Under the pieces are notes generated by a model. It saw nothing but the letters and a program-made list of their open reading frames with translations, made no database searches and had not been told where the DNA came from. Made by a program: the position numbers and the translations under genes. A DNA stretch of 10,442 bases from a candidate division WOR-3 bacterium (GTDB lineage Bacteria; Hydrothermota; Hydrothermia; LBFQ01; DSFT01), in NCBI GenBank assembly GCA_965649115.1, contig CBFGJN010000063.1:1-10442 (forward strand), written 5' to 3'. Each line of letters opens with the position of its first letter. The stretch's first letter is position 1. This document shows positions 1 through 10,438 of this stretch, piece after piece.

Positions 1-127
1 GGGGGATTATTAGGGGGGCTCTGCCCCCCAAAGCCGAAATATGGGTATTTTAAAGGCGAAGCCTTGAATATAGGGTGGGTGGGAAAATAAAGAAAAATAA
101 ATAATTCCAGAATTATTGGACAAGGCA
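1..127 (+). mobile_element. MITE-like repeat copy A (left end cut off by window edge)
   Basis: Aligns by eye with 1268-1395: GGGGGATTATTAGGGGGGCTCTGCCCCCCAAAG, hairpin AAGGC-GAA-GCCTT (53-65), GGGTGGGTGGG (73-83), right TIR AATTATTGGACAAGGCA (111-127). Confidence 0.8.
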
Positions 128-170: not shown

Positions 171-244
171 GGGCGGGTAGCTCAGTAGGTGAGAGCGCTG
201 CCCTTACAAGGCAGAGGTCAGAGGTTCAAGTCCTCTCCCGCCCA
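171..244 (+). tRNA. tRNA-Val (anticodon TAC), CCA not encoded
   Basis: Acceptor stem GGGCGGG(171-177)/CCCGCCC(237-243), D-stem GCTC/GAGC, anticodon arm CTGCC-CTTACAA-GGCAG (TAC 205-207), T-arm AGAGG-TTCAAGT-CCTCT, discriminator A244 followed by TTT. Confidence 0.97.
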
Positions 245-1189: not shown

Positions 1190-1395
1190 TGCTTTGTCCA
1201 ATAATTATTGTTAAATCCTTGATTATCAATAACTTATAAAAGTTTTGAGGAAATTATAGATTTTATGGGGGGATTATTAGGGGGGCTCTGCCCCCCAAAG
1301 GCAAAAAACGGGTATTTATAAGCCGAAGGCTTAATTATAGGGTGGGTGGGGAAAATATAGAAATAATCATATTTTTAGAATTACTAGACAAAACA
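1190..1395 (+). mobile_element. MITE-like repeat copy D (206 bp, full length)
   Basis: Left TIR TGCTTTGTCCAATAATT (1190-1206), right TIR AATTACTAGACAAAACA (1379-1395); IHF-like site, two hairpins and G-tract inside; colinear with the reverse complement of 10235-10438. Confidence 0.85.
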
Positions 1396-1414
1396 AAAAT
1401 TTATTTATTAGAAC

Positions 1415-1424
1415 TTTAAAATTT
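1415..1424 (+). promoter_or_regulatory. Putative -10 element (TAAAAT 1417-1422) 7 nt before the nuoG ATG; leaderless-type promoter
   Basis: ACTTTAAAATTTTCAAAATG with no Shine-Dalgarno; near-identical context upstream of glmM. Confidence 0.55.
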
Positions 1425-1429
1425 TCAAA

Positions 1430-3814
1430 ATGCCTAAAATTTTCATAAATAACAAAGAATATGAATTTAAACAAGGTGAAACAATTTTGGAGGTTGCTTG
1501 GAGAAATAACATATTTATTCCTGTTTTTTGTTATCATCCCAAAATGCCTTATGTAGCTGCTTGTAGAATTTGTAATGTTGAAGTTAAAGTAAATAATATC
1601 ACAAGAATTATGCCAGCATGTGCAACAGTGTGTTCAGACAATATGGAAGTTATAACAAATAGTCCTGTTGTTAAAAATGATATTCAAAAAGGTGTTCTTG
1701 AATTACTATTATTAAATCATCCTTTGGATTGTCCTACATGTGATGCGGGAGGGGAATGTGATTTACAAGAGCTAACATTAAGATTTGGAAGTGATAGAAG
1801 TAGATATGAATTCCCAAAGAGAGAATTTGAAAGGAAGAATGTTAGTCCATTTCTTGACCTTTATCCAAATAGATGTATTGAATGCGATAGATGTAGTAGA
1901 TTTTTTTGGTTAATTGGAGGAGGAACTGAATGGGGAACTTATAATAGGGGTTGGTATGAGGTTTTTGGTGTTTGGGAAAAAGAAATTATAGAAAATGAAT
2001 TTTCTGGAAATATGTGGGAAATTTGTCCTCTTGGTGCAATAAATGATGGAAGTTATAAATTCAAAGCAAGACCTTGGGAAATTGAAAGTATTGAAAGTAT
2101 TGCTCCTGACGATTCTATTGGTTCTAACATATATGTAGAAGTAAGAAGGAAAAAACCATTAAGTAGAGGACCTTTTGAAATTGGAGGGAGGAGAAAGGAT
2201 TTATTTAAAGTTTATAGAATCACTTCAAGGGATAACCCCTCTGTAAATGATTTTTGGCTTTCAGATAGGGAAAGATATTCTTATAGTTGGGTAAATGCTG
2301 AAAATAGAATTGCTTATCCAACAATTAAAGAAAATGGAAATTATAGAAAAGTTAATTGGGAATATATTTTAGATGCTATTTACGAAGATATTAAAAATTT
2401 AAAAAGTGATGAAATCGCTTTAATTAGTGGTGCAAGAAGTTCAAATGAAAGTGCATTTTTATCAAAGATATTATTTAAGGAATTTTTATTTACTGAAAAT
2501 ATAAGCTTTCTGAATTATGATAAAGACCCAATAAAAGAAGTTTTTGGATATTCAATTGGAAATGCTAAAATTACAGATATTGACACTGCTCAAAACATAA
2601 TTATTTTTGGTGATATTAAGAATAGCTTTCCAATCCTTGGAATTAGAATTATTAAAGCAAAAAGAAATAATGCTAATGTTTATGTTTTTAACTATTATAA
2701 GGAAAGGTACATAAGTGAAAATTGGGCAAAAGGTATTCTTTTTCATCCAAATGAGATTGAATTTTATGCTTATAAACTTGCAAAACTACTTAAAGATGGT
2801 GAAAAATTTGAAGATATTGAATTGAAAGATGGAAAAACTATTATTATTCTACCTGATAATTTACCATATAGTGTTATAAGAAATGTTTTAATTGGTTCAG
2901 TTTATAGAGAAAATTGTAAGGTTTTAATTTTGAGAACAAAACCCAATGCCCAAGGATTTATTGATGTTGGACTAAATAGTGTTTCAATTTATGATATTAT
3001 TCAAAATGCAAACGAAGGTAAAATTAAGGCATTATTTATTTGGCATACTGATTTAATTTTAGAATTTCCAAGTAGGAATGAAATTGAAAATGCTTTAAGT
3101 AAAATTCCTATAATTATTTATATTTCTCCCTTTGCAGATTATTCTATAAAATATGCAAAATATATCTTACCTGAAACGACAATTTTTGAAGAAGATGGAA
3201 GTAGAACAAATTGCGAAGGAAGGGTACAAATTCACAAACAAGCGTTATGGAATTATGAAGATAGTATGCCTGCTTGGTGGATATTCAAAAGTTTAATTAA
3301 AAGATTTGGAATAAATTTAAATATCAATTCAATAGATGATATTAGAAAATTGATGAAAAAAGAAGTTTTTGAATATAATAGTGTTAGCTTTGATAAAAAA
3401 CCAAATTATAGAAATTATCCACCATTTATTCCATCAATTAAAAAACTTATAAAATTTTATGAATATGATTTAGCAAATTATGTCCTTTCGTATAAGAAAA
3501 TTGATTTAATTGAGCCAAGTTTAAAACCAATTGAAAATGTCTTAATAACATCAAATCATATATACAAAAGCTCATTTTATGCATGTAGAAGTGAGATTTT
3601 TTATGATTACATAAAACCCTATATAAGGACTATTGAAGCAAATTCAAAAACATTAAAACAAATTGCTTGGGAAAAAACTATCAAAATTGGTGATGAAATT
3701 TTTGAAGTGAAAATTAATGAGGGTATTGTTGATAATGTTTTAATTTACAGACCACTTTTCTTTGATAGTAAAATAAATTACTACTTAAATAGGGAAGGTC
3801 TATTGAAATTATGA
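1430..3814 (+). CDS. nuoG: NADH-quinone oxidoreductase subunit G-like protein (2Fe-2S and 4Fe-4S domains plus molybdopterin-oxidoreductase-like domain)
   Basis: N1b motif FCYHP...AACRIC...PAC, N5 motif HPLDCPTCDAGGECDLQ, N4 motif RCIECDRC...FSGNMWEICPLGA, then FKARPWE and a C-terminal ILPETTIFEEDGSRTNCEGRVQ motif. Confidence 0.85.
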   Translation: MPKIFINNKEYEFKQGETILEVAWRNNIFIPVFCYHPKMPYVAACRICNVEVKVNNITRIMPACATVCSDNMEVITNSPVVKNDIQKGVLELLLLNHPLDCPTCDAGGECDLQELTLRFGSDRSRYEFPKREFERKNVSPFLDLYPNRCIECDRCSRFFWLIGGGTEWGTYNRGWYEVFGVWEKEIIENEFSGNMWEICPLGAINDGSYKFKARPWEIESIESIAPDDSIGSNIYVEVRRKKPLSRGPFEIGGRRKDLFKVYRITSRDNPSVNDFWLSDRERYSYSWVNAENRIAYPTIKENGNYRKVNWEYILDAIYEDIKNLKSDEIALISGARSSNESAFLSKILFKEFLFTENISFLNYDKDPIKEVFGYSIGNAKITDIDTAQNIIIFGDIKNSFPILGIRIIKAKRNNANVYVFNYYKERYISENWAKGILFHPNEIEFYAYKLAKLLKDGEKFEDIELKDGKTIIILPDNLPYSVIRNVLIGSVYRENCKVLILRTKPNAQGFIDVGLNSVSIYDIIQNANEGKIKALFIWHTDLILEFPSRNEIENALSKIPIIIYISPFADYSIKYAKYILPETTIFEEDGSRTNCEGRVQIHKQALWNYEDSMPAWWIFKSLIKRFGINLNINSIDDIRKLMKKEVFEYNSVSFDKKPNYRNYPPFIPSIKKLIKFYEYDLANYVLSYKKIDLIEPSLKPIENVLITSNHIYKSSFYACRSEIFYDYIKPYIRTIEANSKTLKQIAWEKTIKIGDEIFEVKINEGIVDNVLIYRPLFFDSKINYYLNREGLLKL

Positions 3815-5103: not shown

Positions 5104-5530
5104 TGAAAAAATTTTTAAAATAATGTTAAAAGATTGTAAAAAATTATTAAAAAATGATGAAATACCGATTTGTGCTATAATTACTGATGGCAAGAAAATT
5201 ATTTCAAAAGGATTTAATAAAACGAAAAATGATGTTTTAGGACATGCTGAAATTATTGCTATTAAAAAAGCTATTAAAAAGCTAAAAGTTAAATTTTTAA
5301 ATGGTTTTAAAATTTATGTAAATGTTGAACCTTGTATTATGTGTTCTTTTGCTATTGTCCTTTCAAGAATTTCTGAATTAGTTTATGTTTTAAGAGAACC
5401 AAAATTTGGAGGTGTTTATAGTCTTTATCAAATTCCAAATGATATTAGATTAAATCATAGAGTTATTGTTAGAAAAGTTGATTATTTTGAAGAAGAATTT
5501 AAAAATTTATTAAAATTATGGAGAGAATAA
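5093..5530 (+). CDS. tadA: tRNA-specific adenosine deaminase TadA (nucleoside deaminase family)
   Basis: EIPICA, HAE and EPCIMC zinc motifs, EPKFGG and RLNH; TTG start preceded by SD-like GAGGAGGGAG within the rimO 3' end. Confidence 0.82.
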   Translation: MLSDEKIFKIMLKDCKKLLKNDEIPICAIITDGKKIISKGFNKTKNDVLGHAEIIAIKKAIKKLKVKFLNGFKIYVNVEPCIMCSFAIVLSRISELVYVLREPKFGGVYSLYQIPNDIRLNHRVIVRKVDYFEEEFKNLLKLWRE

Positions 5531-6675
5531 TAGTAAAACCTTCAATTAATGAAATTTTAAGTTATCCAAAAATTGTAAGTGGTCATCAACCAATTTTTTT
5601 CTATTATGGAATTCTATTAAAAGCCATTTTATTAAAAAGTCACAAAAATCACTTATTTTTAATTGCAGACCACGATGAAAGGAATGAAATTTACACTTGG
5701 ACAATAGATGATAATTTCAATATCCATAAAATTTCCTTCTTAAAATTTAGTGAAAAAATTATTTTTGAAAAATTTCCATCTGTTAGTCAAAAGCATTTAT
5801 TTAATTTTTATAAGAGTTTCAAAGCATTAACAAATAAGAAATTATTAAAGAAATTAGAATTTGCCTTTGAATTAGCATTTAATTTAGTCAAAGAAGTTGA
5901 TAATTATAGTGATTTTATGATAAGTTGGACATTTAAGTTTTGTAATTTAAATTTAAATGTTAAGAAAGTTTCTGAAATATCAAAAACTGATGAATTTAAA
6001 AATTTCGTTATTGAAGTTTCAAATAGTGATTTTAATAAAAAATTTAATGAAGTTTTGTTAAAACTAAAAAGAAAACCATTTAGATTGCTTAAAGAAAATG
6101 AACTTCCATTTTGGAAAGTTATTAATAATAAAAGAGAGCCTTTATATAAGGATGATTTAAAAAATTTGGATAAATTGGAAATTAGACCAAGAGCTTGGAC
6201 ACTAACATTATTTTTTAGGAAAAATGGATGGGCATTTTTACATGGTAAGGGTGGTTATGGTTATGATAAAATTATTGAAATGATTTTTGATAATCTTTCA
6301 CCAAAATTTCTTATTACAGGTGATAAATTTTTAGATTTAGATATTGAAATTAAAAGTTTTGATGAGTTTTATAAGCTTAAAAATATCATTAGCGATTTAA
6401 AATGGCATTCTGAATACCTTTTTAAGTGCTTTTGTCCCCTAAAAGATATAAATTATTTCTTTAATTGGAATTTGAATTTAGATGAAAACTATTTGAAATA
6501 CGAAAAATTTAATTTGGTTTTAAATAATCCAAAAGCATTTAATTTGATTAGACAAATTAACGAGAAGTTATTTTTTCAAGCAAAAGAAAGTTCAATTTAT
6601 AATTATTTAATTGATTTATATAAAAGAGCTAAAAATTGTTCATTTAGAGAATTTCCATTTTTTATTGTGGTTTAA
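5518..6675 (+). CDS. Uncharacterised protein with GHQP, ELPFW, RPRA and HGxGGxxYD motifs (possibly distant BshC-like nucleotidyltransferase/ligase fold)
   Basis: 385-aa ORF in an AT-rich context, overlapping tadA by 13 nt; motif-like islands IVSGHQPIFFYYG, ELPFW, IRPRAWTLTLFFR, FLHGKGGYGYD. Function is inferred only. Confidence 0.7.
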   Translation: MERIIVKPSINEILSYPKIVSGHQPIFFYYGILLKAILLKSHKNHLFLIADHDERNEIYTWTIDDNFNIHKISFLKFSEKIIFEKFPSVSQKHLFNFYKSFKALTNKKLLKKLEFAFELAFNLVKEVDNYSDFMISWTFKFCNLNLNVKKVSEISKTDEFKNFVIEVSNSDFNKKFNEVLLKLKRKPFRLLKENELPFWKVINNKREPLYKDDLKNLDKLEIRPRAWTLTLFFRKNGWAFLHGKGGYGYDKIIEMIFDNLSPKFLITGDKFLDLDIEIKSFDEFYKLKNIISDLKWHSEYLFKCFCPLKDINYFFNWNLNLDENYLKYEKFNLVLNNPKAFNLIRQINEKLFFQAKESSIYNYLIDLYKRAKNCSFREFPFFIVV

Positions 6676-7529: not shown

Positions 7530-8937
7530 AATAAGTTTTTTTATTTATTTTTGAACCTTTAAAAAGCAGAATATAAATTCCATCATTTAAATTTTGAGTG
7601 TTTAAATTAAAAATAATTCTATTTGTTCCTTTAACACTATAAACTTTTTCAATTAATCTTCCAATATCATCAAAAAGATAAACATCAACATCATCATTTT
7701 CATTTAAATAAGCAGAGATTGTTAAAATCTCTCCTCTTTTTATTTTTTTATTTGAAATATATATTTCCAAATTTAAATTTGAACTATCAATATAAACACT
7801 ATTTATTTTATTGGGGGTTCCAAAATCAATTAAGGAACTTTTCCAACTATCCTTCAAATAGCCTTTTAAACTTGGATTTATTTTTTCAAGGGTAAGAACA
7901 CCTTTACCTCCATAAGAAGAACTATAATAAACACTATCAAACTGAAAATTAAATTTTGAAATTAAAACTAAGCTTTCATAATTATCATTCAACGATATAA
8001 AATCTACAACACTATCTGCCCTAAAAACTTTAAAGCTTTTTGGATTTATTTTTCCAATTAATCTAAATTCATTTTTTGCCATATCTAAAATTCTAAATTT
8101 TGACAAATCAATTTCAATATCACTATTATTATAAATTTCAATCCATTCAGGATTATAATCATATTCAATTTCATTTATTATTAAAATTGGATAAAAAATT
8201 GGTACATAAAAGTAATCGTAAAAATTTTTTGAAAGAATTTCAATTTTTGGTGATTTTGGATTTGAAATTGTAATTTCATAATTGCTATTTGGATTTATAG
8301 AAACATTAAAATAGAATGTATCTTTTGAAATGATTTTTATAGTGTCTGAAAACAATTGATTTGATAAATTTTTTATTATAATTTTTAAATAATTTGAAGT
8401 TAAGTAAGCACTATCCAATTTTAATAAGCTGTTTGAGAAGATTGAATTTTGATAGTTTGGTGTTCCATTTACATTTAAACTTATTCCCCATTCGTCAATA
8501 TCATAATTTATTCGTTCAATTGAATGAGCAATAGGAACATTTAAAATTGGTTTCTCAAATTTAGCAATTGTATCATTAAATTGATTTAATATATATATAC
8601 TATCATTTTTTGAAAGACCATTTCCAATGGCATTATCATCAACAGTTAAAACATTTCCAAATAAATTATAATTTATTGGACAATTTAAAAAATAATTACT
8701 ATCAATTATTAGCGTAAATTCCTTTGGTAAAGTAAACATTCTTGATTGAATATAATTTGGAGGATTTTGAACTTGAATAATGTAATCAATATCTTCCCCA
8801 TCTGAAATTTTAAAACCATTTAAATAGATTGTATCATTTGAATTATTATAAATTTCAATATATTCTCCACAACTCTCATCACTTGGATAATTCATTACCT
8901 CATTTATTAAAAGATTTCCTAATAAAATCCAAAACAT
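7513..8937 (-). CDS. Exported/surface protein with two lamin-tail domains and a C-terminal Ig-like (T9SS-CTD/FlgD-like) domain
   Basis: Two repeats of INE...EY/WIEIYN...GTP (LINEVMNYP..GEYIEIYNNS; IINEIEYD..PEWIEIYNNS); C-terminus LFDDIGRLI...LNTQNLNDGIYILLFK; Asn-rich. In-frame stop just upstream fixes the ATG at 8937. Confidence 0.8.
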   Translation of the reverse strand: MFWILLGNLLINEVMNYPSDESCGEYIEIYNNSNDTIYLNGFKISDGEDIDYIIQVQNPPNYIQSRMFTLPKEFTLIIDSNYFLNCPINYNLFGNVLTVDDNAIGNGLSKNDSIYILNQFNDTIAKFEKPILNVPIAHSIERINYDIDEWGISLNVNGTPNYQNSIFSNSLLKLDSAYLTSNYLKIIIKNLSNQLFSDTIKIISKDTFYFNVSINPNSNYEITISNPKSPKIEILSKNFYDYFYVPIFYPILIINEIEYDYNPEWIEIYNNSDIEIDLSKFRILDMAKNEFRLIGKINPKSFKVFRADSVVDFISLNDNYESLVLISKFNFQFDSVYYSSSYGGKGVLTLEKINPSLKGYLKDSWKSSLIDFGTPNKINSVYIDSSNLNLEIYISNKKIKRGEILTISAYLNENDDVDVYLFDDIGRLIEKVYSVKGTNRIIFNLNTQNLNDGIYILLFKGSKINKKTYFRVYE

Positions 8938-10198
8938 AATCTATAAATTTCTTTTCAAGACTTTCAGCATATATTCTTATTATTGGTTCAGTATTTGATG
9001 GTCTAATGTGAATCCATCCATTACTTTGCTTTAAATATAATCCATCTTCAAAATTTTTTTCAAAATTTGAAAATTCTTTTAAAAACTTTTCCTTGATTTC
9101 TTCAAAATTATCGTTTTCAATTTTTTCCTTTATAAAATGTGTTCTTGGAAGATTATTTATAAGTTTAAAAATTCTTCCCTCAACATAGCTATTTAAAATC
9201 AAACCTAAGGATAGTAATCCATCTCTTGTTTTGTTAAATTTTGGATAAATAATTCCACCGTTTCCTTCTCCTCCAATAATACTTTTTGTTTCTTCAATTC
9301 TTTTTATTACATTTGCTTCGCCTACTTTTGAGCGAATTACATTTACCCCAAATTCTTTCGCTATAAAATCAACTAACATCGTTGTAGAATAATTCACTAC
9401 AATATCTCCTTTCTCTCTTTGAAGAATTTCATATATTCCAACTAAAATTGTCCATTCCTCTGAAAACAATCCGAAATTTTTCAATCCAAATAAAAGTCTA
9501 TCTCCATCCGGATCAGTAGCAAAAACTAAATCACATTCATCTTTTAGTTCTTCTAAATGTCTTAAATGTTCAATTCTTGGTTCAGGATTTCTTGTAAATA
9601 CCCCACTATTATCACAATTTATCTTAATAATGTTTTTTATACCAAATTTTTCAATTAGTTCTGGAAAAACCTTATAGCCTGCACCATTCACGCAATCAAT
9701 AGCAACTTTTATTGAACTATTAATAATTTTTAAACCTACAAAATCAACAATAGATGAAATATGAATTTTATAACTATTTTCGGCATATATTAAATCACCT
9801 ATACATGATGAAAAATTTAAATTGTTTAAATAATTTTTTAATGTTTCAAGTTCTTCTTCAAATAAAAATCTATTTTTTATGGCAAGTTTCAATGCATTAT
9901 ATTCACTTGGATTATGACTTGCTGTAATAATAATACCTCCATCTAAATTTAAGTTTTTTATTATATATAAGCTTGTTGGTGTTGGACAAATTGAAAGACT
10001 ATAAACATTTTTACATGTTGAGAGAGCAGTATTTATAACTATTGGATATAGGACTTTTCCAGAGCTTCTTGTATCTCTTGAAACAACAATGTTTTTACCA
10101 TCTAAATAATTACAAAATGCATTTGTCCAAATTAAAGCACTATAAGGATTTAATTCATTTGGATATAATCCCCTTATTCCTGAGACTGAGATTTTCAA
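8900..10198 (-). CDS. glmM: Alpha-D-phosphohexomutase (phosphoglucosamine mutase / phosphomannomutase)
   Basis: SGIRG, catalytic TASHNP, metal-binding DPDGDR, sugar-binding GEGNGG, IRPSNTEP; TTG start. Specificity (GlmM vs PMM/PGM) cannot be resolved by eye. Confidence 0.85.
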   Translation of the reverse strand: MKISVSGIRGLYPNELNPYSALIWTNAFCNYLDGKNIVVSRDTRSSGKVLYPIVINTALSTCKNVYSLSICPTPTSLYIIKNLNLDGGIIITASHNPSEYNALKLAIKNRFLFEEELETLKNYLNNLNFSSCIGDLIYAENSYKIHISSIVDFVGLKIINSSIKVAIDCVNGAGYKVFPELIEKFGIKNIIKINCDNSGVFTRNPEPRIEHLRHLEELKDECDLVFATDPDGDRLLFGLKNFGLFSEEWTILVGIYEILQREKGDIVVNYSTTMLVDFIAKEFGVNVIRSKVGEANVIKRIEETKSIIGGEGNGGIIYPKFNKTRDGLLSLGLILNSYVEGRIFKLINNLPRTHFIKEKIENDNFEEIKEKFLKEFSNFEKNFEDGLYLKQSNGWIHIRPSNTEPIIRIYAESLEKKFIDYVLDFIRKSFNK

Positions 10199-10204
10199 TT
10201 TTCA

Positions 10205-10214
10205 AAATTTTAAA
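10205..10214 (-). promoter_or_regulatory. Putative -10 element (TAAAAT 10212-10207) 8 nt before the glmM TTG; leaderless-type promoter
   Basis: Minus strand reads ACTTTAAAATTTTGAAAATTG; no Shine-Dalgarno. Confidence 0.55.
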
Positions 10215-10234
10215 GTAGAAATTGAAAAATTAGG

Positions 10235-10438
10235 TGCTTTGTCCAATAATTCTGGAAATATAATCATTTCTATGTTTTCCCACCCACCCTGAAATAAAGG
10301 CTACGCCTTTAAAATGCCCATTTTTCGGCTTTAGGGGGCTTCGCCCCCCATCAAAACCCCTCTAAAATCAATAATTTCCTTAAAATTTTTATAAGTTATT
10401 GATAATCAATAACCTAACAACAATTATTGGACAAAGCA
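10235..10438 (-). mobile_element. MITE-like repeat copy E (204 bp, full length, inverted, perfect 17-bp TIRs)
   Basis: TGCTTTGTCCAATAATT (10235-10251) and AATTATTGGACAAAGCA (10422-10438) are exact inverted repeats; the interior is the reverse complement of the copy D layout. Confidence 0.88.

Follow-up and report, generated by a model that had tools for sequence, protein, structure and literature searches.

The stretch of DNA analysed here, referred to as the window, comprises 10,442 nucleotides and corresponds to contig C63 of the genome assembly G000 (99 contigs, 1,848,020 bp, 27.6% G+C), which represents an uncultured thermophile with a small genome from the 'Candidatus Hydrothermia' (WOR-3/Hydrothermia) lineage. 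All three non-coding stretches of the window are occupied by copies of a single element of ~205 bp that carries terminal inverted repeats (TIRs) of 17 bp at both ends, as a preliminary description of the sequence had stated; the five copies reported there, designated A to E, were found at the same places and align with one another. The element is very probably a MITE (miniature inverted-repeat transposable element) of an IS903-group insertion sequence (IS) residing in the same genome. Both would insert at a fixed register upstream of a short promoter-like box, and tandem arrays would arise by repeated hits on the same target.

Copy D (positions 1190–1395, plus strand), the feature under study, is a full element of 206 bp with its left TIR at 1190–1206 and its right TIR at 1379–1395. 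It is preceded on the same strand by two incomplete copies. Copy B (~916–1007) follows directly on the stop codon of a GT2 glycosyltransferase gene and is truncated on the 5' side, lacking the left part and retaining the right TIR (991–1007). Copy C (1017–1180) is a 164-bp variant with an internal deletion and a degraded G/C hairpin. The spacers between B and C (1008–1016) and between C and D (1181–1189) consist of the same 9 bp, AAAAATTTA, and the right target copy of D, AAAATTTAT (1396–1404, plus strand), equals this spacer shifted or shortened by one A. A box, CTTTAAAATTTT (1414–1425, plus strand), lies 18 bp from the end of D and 4 nt before the ATG of a gene for a NuoG-like subunit.

Copy A (1–127, plus strand) represents the right-hand ~127 bp of the element, cut by the start of the contig; position 127 is the last of its right TIR. 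Two other contig ends carry the identical sequence (100%), which is what a break of the assembly within a repeat would produce. On the same strand it is adjoined by the 9-bp target copy TAAGATATA (128–136) and followed by the box CTTTAAAATTT (147–157), which stands 19 bp from the end of A and 13 bp before a tRNA-Val gene. Copy E (10235–10438, minus strand) is a full element of 204 bp in inverted orientation, with its right end at 10235. The 9-bp target copy CCTAATTTT, read on the minus strand (10226–10234), adjoins this end, and the box CTTTAAAATTTT recurs on the minus strand at 10204–10215, 19 bp from the end of E and 5 nt before the TTG start of a phosphogluco/mannomutase (PGM/PMM) gene. The TIRs bounding the five copies are of the form TGCTTTGTCYARTAAWT, and the three terminal copies of the window (A, D and E) are all in register with a box, at distances of 19, 18 and 19 bp, respectively.

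For the genome-wide analysis elements were defined by a TIR pattern tolerating up to 3 mismatches, and 272 elements with both TIRs 90–270 bp apart were found in G000. The high copy number proposed in the preliminary description was evident from a profile built from 144 full copies, which yielded 733 matches in the genome, 236 of them full length. The family covers ~99.8 kb, i.e. 5.4% of the 1,848,020 bp, far more than chance could yield. Mean pairwise identity in a multiple alignment of 110 full-size copies was 78%, yet 72 of 259 copies had a partner at ≥95% identity and 31 at ≥98%, which indicates a family that is old but still active, or recently so. The copies contain no open reading frame (ORF) of ≥60 aa and, as already noted for those of the window, encode no transposase. 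Likewise, the fixed order of structural modules seen in the window is that of the family consensus, and each module is retained in the majority of full copies: among 131 full-size copies, the IHF-like sequence WATCAANNNNTTR was present in 95, the palindrome TTGATNATCAA in 83, the two G-runs in 109, the G/C hairpin in 110, the AAGSC-GAA-GSCTT hairpin in 111 and GGGNGGGNGGG in 115.

The family is abundant in G000 and in the sister species G002, and at least one copy is present in G003. No match was found in G001 and only fragments in G004. Beyond the genus, a search of 36 genomes of other genera in the class did not detect the family, apart from one marginal match, and a BLAST search of plasmids with copy E returned just two short matches at chance level.

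An exact 9-bp duplication was found at the borders of 104 out of 260 testable elements, and 20 more showed one mismatch. In the control, consisting of the next 9 bp outward, none of the 260 matched within one mismatch. Exact border repeats occurred at a length of 9 bp only (94 of 211), with none at 10–12 bp. The target-site duplications (TSDs) of 9 bp that had been predicted from the likeness to IS903 are hence present genome-wide. The search for an empty orthologous site yielded one clean case in G002, of which 613 kb, ~90% identical to G000 in shared genes, entered the comparison: the element at G000 C4:35714–35925 (212 bp plus 9 bp) is precisely absent there, and one target copy is present. 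Several whole arrays are also missing in G002, while some sites are occupied in both species. The genomes G001, G003 and G004 (~72–84% nucleotide identity) were unusable for this purpose, as nearly all blocks lying between elements map to different places.

The comparison with G002 also revealed a rearrangement. Relative to C38, C7 and C131 of G002, the segment G000:C18:8568–28567 (L091) shows an inversion of ~11.5 kb; both G000 breakpoints have an element with intact 9-bp repeats and the G002 junctions have none. A 2.3-kb segment lying between two elements is absent in G002, and in the more distant G001, G003 and G004 each inter-element block maps to a different place.

A cognate transposase ORF bounded by the same TIRs, the existence of which had been suggested, was approached from several sides. 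TIR pairs 0.26–8 kb apart were considered as IS candidates and rejected, as they enclosed only ordinary genes between two separate MITEs and showed no duplications. A tblastn search with the transposase of IS102 (from plasmid pSC101) gave faint matches at contig ends. The IS ends themselves were found by sorting the TIRs lying outside MITE matches, which fell into two clusters. At 10 contig ends, the left inverted repeat (IRL) TGCTTTGTCCAATAAAT leads into non-MITE sequence in which an ORF begins at position 68. At 16 contig ends, the right inverted repeat (IRR) TGCCTTGTCCAATAATT leads into 127 bp, the same in all 16 cases, that encode the end of an ORF. That the contigs end ~127 bp into the IS is due to the behaviour of short-read assemblers at repeats.

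The 56-aa N-terminus identified the public protein P0001 (300 aa; 92% identity over 86% of the query, 48 residues), the C-terminal 14 residues of which are those of the IRR-side ORF. P0001 contains the domains PF01609 and PF13737 and scores 245.5 bits on NCBIfam NF033579 (cut-off 140). For P0001 and the IS102 transposase alike this is the best-matching model, with scores above the cut-off, and the proteins align end to end (27% identity over 295 aa; E 6e-33), with the D, D and E positions located within conserved blocks. Reckoned from the two ends and 300 codons, the IS would measure ~1,052 bp; its interior is absent from the G000 assembly. Relatives of the IS at 61–75% protein identity and with the same two ends were found on metagenome contigs; in one of them, L175, the two ends are 922 bp apart. 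A scan with PF01609 over the phylum matched 58 of 201 genomes, and the TIR was present at none of the 30 loci inspected.

MITE and IS have ~26 bp in common at the left end and ~25 bp at the right end; on its right-hand side the MITE also has a stretch, GGGNGGG...AAAATATAG, that aligns loosely with the right subterminal region of the IS. The resemblance to the inverted repeat of IS903 given in the preliminary description is borne out by that of IS102 on pSC101, which matches the TIR at 13–14 of 17 positions; equally good matches occurred in 3 of the 18,492 windows of pSC101. The 9-bp duplication together with inverted repeats of ~18 bp of the GGCTTTGTTGAATAAATC type is that of the IS5/IS903 group. 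MITE copies account for 87 of the 198 contig ends, and 26 further ends lie ~100–236 bp inside IS ends. The family thus causes most of the assembly breaks and hides its own transposase gene.

The presence of TIRs, a TSD of fixed length, a small size without transposase, a co-resident autonomous element and an empty-site polymorphism support the classification of the ~205-bp element as a MITE, a non-autonomous derivative of an IS of the IS903 group in the IS5 family. Copy number, TSDs, the empty site and the cognate IS all favour the earlier proposal that it is moved in trans by an IS5/IS903-like transposase. A REP/BIME-type repeat was ruled out by the TIRs, the 9-bp duplications and the DDE partner. 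On the metagenome contig L176, a related IS is adjoined by shorter elements (~207–368 and 1172–1237) that share the TIRs and the TTGATNATCAA palindrome and apparently lack the G-rich modules; they may represent another lineage of MITEs belonging to this IS family.

The position of the elements relative to genes is far from even. With genes called crudely as ORFs of ≥100 aa (~84% of the genome is coding), none of the 272 elements was found inside an ORF. Occupied spacers amounted to 55 of 159 between divergent genes, 88 of 1,058 between tandem genes and 25 of 190 between convergent genes. In the tandem-gene spacers 112 of 122 elements were co-oriented with the genes, whereas orientation was unbiased in divergent (29 vs 38) and convergent (18 vs 11) spacers. 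Orienting the flanks by the element revealed a common order, namely the right end, the 9-bp repeat, ~10 variable bases and CTTTAAAATTT. The first CTTTAAA to the right of the element (n = 272) was at offset 19 in 71 cases, 18 in 26, 11 in 18 and 12 in 7, while the offsets in the left flank showed no peak. Among the 133 elements with a box within 80 bp, offsets of 13–17 were found just 4 times and offsets beyond 19 just 3 times. The target is therefore situated 9–10 bp (main class) or 2–3 bp (minor class) upstream of the box.

Counted per solo element or array, a box at 17–20 or 10–13 bp was present on the right in 137 of 224 cases and on the left in 8 of 224. The IS shows the same polarity, with a box in register at 11 of 16 IRR ends and at 0 of 10 IRL ends. 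The register was also found for 25 of 41 elements in G002 and, on metagenome contigs, for the majority of IRR ends in diverged relatives of the IS. Insertion is thus targeted: IS and MITE come to lie upstream of the box with a set distance and direction. A first idea, according to which resident ends attract new copies, gave way to this box-target model on the basis of the flank and array data. Neither the targeting to the box nor the origin of the tandem arrays had been noticed in the preliminary description.

The box, more fully TTTAAAATTT (= (A/G)CTTTAAAATTT), occurs 1,153 times in the genome, where composition would predict ~143 occurrences. An ORF of ≥80 aa starts within 40 nt after it in 498 cases, mostly at 4–9 nt with a peak at 5 nt. 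The box upstream of the NuoG-like gene is kept in four sister genomes, although three of these lack an element at this place. Element sequence is present within 45 bp upstream at 273 of 535 box-plus-ORF sites, and at box sites without an element no conserved −35 signal was found. A translation signal is unlikely, since the box also precedes the tRNA-Val gene. Its position near starts and tRNA and the lack of a −35 partner suggest that it is most likely a −10 promoter element, the spacing of which would give transcripts that are leaderless or nearly so.

Elements are frequently joined end to end, and 132 of the 164 junctions measure exactly 9 bp. Of these 132, 111 connect copies on the same strand (head to tail) and 7 copies on opposite strands; 14 could not be oriented. 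All spacers were identical in 8 of 43 arrays, and 36 of 42 arrays had a box at the right end. Neighbours within arrays do not resemble one another more closely than random pairs do (83.8% vs 84.1% identity, p 0.66), which argues against arrays being local duplications. Moreover, IS and MITE alternate at 9-bp junctions, and in four dimers the outer 9-bp repeats match while the inner spacer is different, which fits movement of the dimer as one unit. In the window, the succession of AAAAATTTA, AAAAATTTA and AAAATTTAT along copies B, C and D is consistent with repeated insertion into a regenerated target. At a few places in G000 (C6 ~49961, C3 ~55388 and C20 ~28435) IS ends directly abut an element end or a 9-bp TIR fragment, and the usual 9-bp spacer is absent from these abutments.

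The interior of the element had been described as structured cargo that seemed to be under selection, and this claim is supported only in part. In its favour, one pair of the AAGSC-GAA-GSCTT hairpin flips from C-G to G-C in a compensatory manner (67 vs 38 of 109, 4 unpaired); this may be a single event inherited by a subfamily. The G/C hairpin is nearly invariant and hence uninformative on selection. The part of the claim that concerns selection is weakened by the folding of the sense strand, which was no better than that of shuffled sequences (z −1.15), by the lack of terminator-like sites (GC hairpin plus T run; 0 in positions 1–1500 of the window) and by the loose alignment with the right end of the IS mentioned above. 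The z value of the antisense strand, −5.43, is largely due to TIR pairing. In a permissive Rfam scan of the window no match fell on the elements, which therefore correspond to no known RNA family. A pairing of the left TIR with the GGGTGGG run proposed by RNAalifold is rich in G-U pairs, probably spurious, and was discarded. Three matches to HU/IHF-family genes exist in the genome, and the putative IHF-like site could therefore be used. A role of the modules in cis during transposition is at least as likely as selection for a host function.

These observations can be combined in a model, which we consider very likely, in which the DDE transposase of the IS would recognise the shared 17-bp ends, move both IS and MITE and duplicate 9 bp of the target. 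The parent IS is present in at least 16 near-identical copies, the interior of which was lost from the assembly. The right end of the element (IRR side) faces the (A/G)CTTTAAAATTT box, as the flanks show, and the 9-bp duplication would restore the target beside it, so that the next insertion could enter the same 9 bp. A new copy would then land between the resident copy and the gene and, judging from the pattern of the arrays, head-to-tail series of unrelated copies with identical 9-bp spacers would result. As to the steering cue, the transposase might read the box itself, or respond to a protein or a distortion at the promoter.

Several other explanations have to be weighed against this model. 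Insertion might be near-random, the fixed position upstream of the box being what purifying selection has left in a compact genome. The complete absence of elements from ORFs in a genome that is ~84% coding agrees with this, as does an orientation bias that is seen in tandem spacers (112/122) and not in divergent or convergent ones. Selection, however, predicts a minimum distance to the gene, whereas sharp peaks are seen (97 elements at 18–19 and 25 at 11–12); in addition, the near-identical and presumably young IS copies occupy the same register (11/16), which recurs in G002 and in diverged metagenome relatives. We regard near-random insertion as very unlikely. It is also conceivable that insertions are drawn to target DNA that mimics the transposase's own end (TGCTTT); arrays would then result from a resident left end (TGCTTTGTCC) abutting the 9-bp target, and boxes would be hit since many of them read TGCTTTAAAA. 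Such mimicry is suggested by the minor class, in which the target is directly followed by TG and CTTTAAAA, by the arrays, in which the 9 bp abut TGCTTTGTC, and by the first logo obtained, CA-N9-TG.TTT. It does not account for the main class (offset 18–19), where the 10 bp from target to box are variable and without TGCTTT; a G at the second flank position was present at just 4 of the 19 cleanest sites, and the ending of 36 of 42 arrays at a box is predicted by the box-target model and not by mimicry alone. End mimicry is accordingly unlikely, though it deserves more attention than near-random insertion.

The copies might alternatively be kept as a host module, e.g. an intergenic insulator or terminator, an upstream element of promoters, or a signal at the RNA/DNA level formed by a G-quadruplex or hairpin, and the interior would then be conserved for its function. 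The frequency of element sequence close upstream of box-plus-ORF sites (273/535) would be explained, and so would the coincidence of the G-rich strand with the sense strand in 112 of 122 tandem-gene spacers, the retention of GC-rich modules in most copies despite a genome of 27.6% GC, and the compensatory flip in one hairpin pair. Position and orientation are, however, common to the IS itself, so a host function is not needed to explain them. Terminator-like sites, a stable sense fold (z −1.15) and Rfam matches are lacking, the pair flip may go back to one event inherited by a subfamily, and deletion variants without the modules persist, as seen in the length classes and in copy C. Taken together, this makes maintenance as a host module quite unlikely. 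Finally, the arrays might have originated by local tandem duplication or unequal crossing-over of one unit, i.e. the element plus 9 bp, which would account for the regularity of the units (132 of 164 junctions at exactly 9 bp) and for the arrays with all spacers identical (8/43). Against it stand the divergence of neighbours, which equals that of random pairs despite identical spacers, the alternation of IS and MITE at 9-bp junctions, and the four dimers with an outer 9-bp repeat of their own and a different inner spacer. Local duplication is thus extremely unlikely as the source of the arrays.

The model of targeted insertion by the IS transposase also has points to reckon with. Out of 182 solo elements, 56 adjoin neither a box nor another end, and the one clean empty site belongs to this class; targeting is therefore a strong preference and not a rule. 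Purifying selection in such a compact genome must add to the positional bias. Pfam scans with PF01609 and PF13737 gave matches in 0 of the 5 genomes of the genus, a result that we attribute to the unassembled interior of the IS and not to its absence. The IS length and the full protein were deduced from the public P0001 and not read from G000. Short-read assembly collapses identical tandem copies, which biases the comparison of neighbours against local duplication, and it is its position that gives the box the name of a promoter.

A more far-reaching version would be that the transposase has evolved to home to the −10 box, or to the RNA polymerase or a factor bound there, inserting 10 bp upstream in one direction only, in a Ty-like manner. 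About half of the box promoters would then be flanked by an element, which might serve as an insulator or modulator, and the arrays would be an ordered record of homing with the newest copy nearest to the gene. We put this forward tentatively, as a possibility somewhat more apt to fail than to hold.

As to the gene context, the tRNA-Val gene adjoining copy A (171–244, plus strand) is the sole Rfam match of the window above the gathering threshold. The GT2 gene upstream of copy B ends at 913. Its reading frame (206–913) is open from within the tRNA up to 913, and a conserved N-terminal motif, IIIPTYNE, is encoded from ~257, yet ATG, GTG and TTG are absent before 467. Translation may start at the ATT at 248, directly after the tRNA, or the gene may be read jointly with the tRNA; the adjacency of the two is kept in four sister genomes. 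The NuoG-like gene extends from its ATG at 1430 to 3814. The copies are further surrounded by genes for a MiaB-like radical SAM enzyme, a deaminase, a UbiA prenyltransferase and an LTD-domain protein, by an ORF of 385 aa without a Pfam match (5518–6675), situated between those for the deaminase and UbiA, and by the PGM/PMM gene (8900–10198, minus strand; TTG start at 10198). Four hot-spring metagenome runs match the window (0.63–0.78 of words), the value for the sole RNA run being 0.08. Contigs from the four DNA runs that lie over the window contain repeat-driven joints, and their summed depths can be taken neither for copy number nor for expression.

The family fills 5.4% of the genome of a small-genome thermophile without entering any long ORF. 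As a natural system, it lends itself to work on the steering of a DDE transposase to promoters; it also provides a simple mechanism for the formation of tandem transposon arrays and a likely promoter model, consisting of a −10-only box and leaderless starts, for an uncultured lineage without genetics. On the practical side, it breaks the assembly at more than half of the 198 contig ends and hides the transposase from gene-based surveys.

Among known systems, IS903 and IS102 are the closest. They share with the IS described here the 9-bp target duplication and the possession of one DDE transposase gene, which begins a few tens of bp inward of IRL. The length of ~1.05 kb would be shared as well (1,057 bp for IS102 on pSC101, compared with the ~1,052 bp deduced here). 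In contrast, the first end base is T here and G there, the subterminal regions are G-rich here, the host is a WOR-3/Hydrothermia thermophile, and targeting is strong and orientation-specific to a promoter-like box. IS903 favours a sequence context of loose symmetry about its 9-bp target, and the IS903-type family, of the cut-and-paste type, is usually regarded as weakly selective. In Neisseria, Correia elements (NEMIS) are MITEs that occur in large numbers between genes, near promoters, and possess TIRs and an IHF-type site; they duplicate TA, and are not known to keep a fixed register to a −10 box. Ty3 and Ty1, eukaryotic retrotransposons that transcription factors tether, target RNA polymerase III genes at a fixed distance. 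Fixed-distance targeting to a transcription start complex would be common to them and the element described here, tethering being the feature of Ty. In the open-access literature we found neither a description of an IS or MITE homing to a −10-type promoter box nor an account of mobile elements in this lineage.

MITEAba12 and ISAba12 of Acinetobacter form a comparable pair, as far as the accessible part of the report goes (PMC6382973): 9-bp duplications are present, the TIRs match those of a co-resident IS of ~1.04 kb, the end (GGCTTTGTTGCA...) is of the IS903 type, and mobilisation in trans was inferred likewise. MITEAba12 differs in its length of 113 bp and in an identity to the IS that is confined to the TIRs, whereas the present family fills a substantial part of its genome; in the same portion of that report neither promoter-box targeting nor tandem arrays are described (the word 'tandem' occurs 0 times). 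According to the available part of its description (PMC10132070), the IS1202 family (ISAjo2) targets dif/pdif sites in one orientation and at a fixed short distance. There the target is that of XerC/D, at 5 bp, while here an IS5-family element uses a box present ~1,000 times per genome. Head-to-tail transposon arrays in Drosophila are thought to begin with repeated insertion at one target, as stated in the portion at hand of PMC5932611; these dimers are eukaryotic and concern satellite evolution, whereas here the target would be regenerated beside a fixed motif. MITEs and IS903-type elements as such are well known, and the unusual part is the insertion rule, i.e. a fixed register and direction at a gene-start motif.
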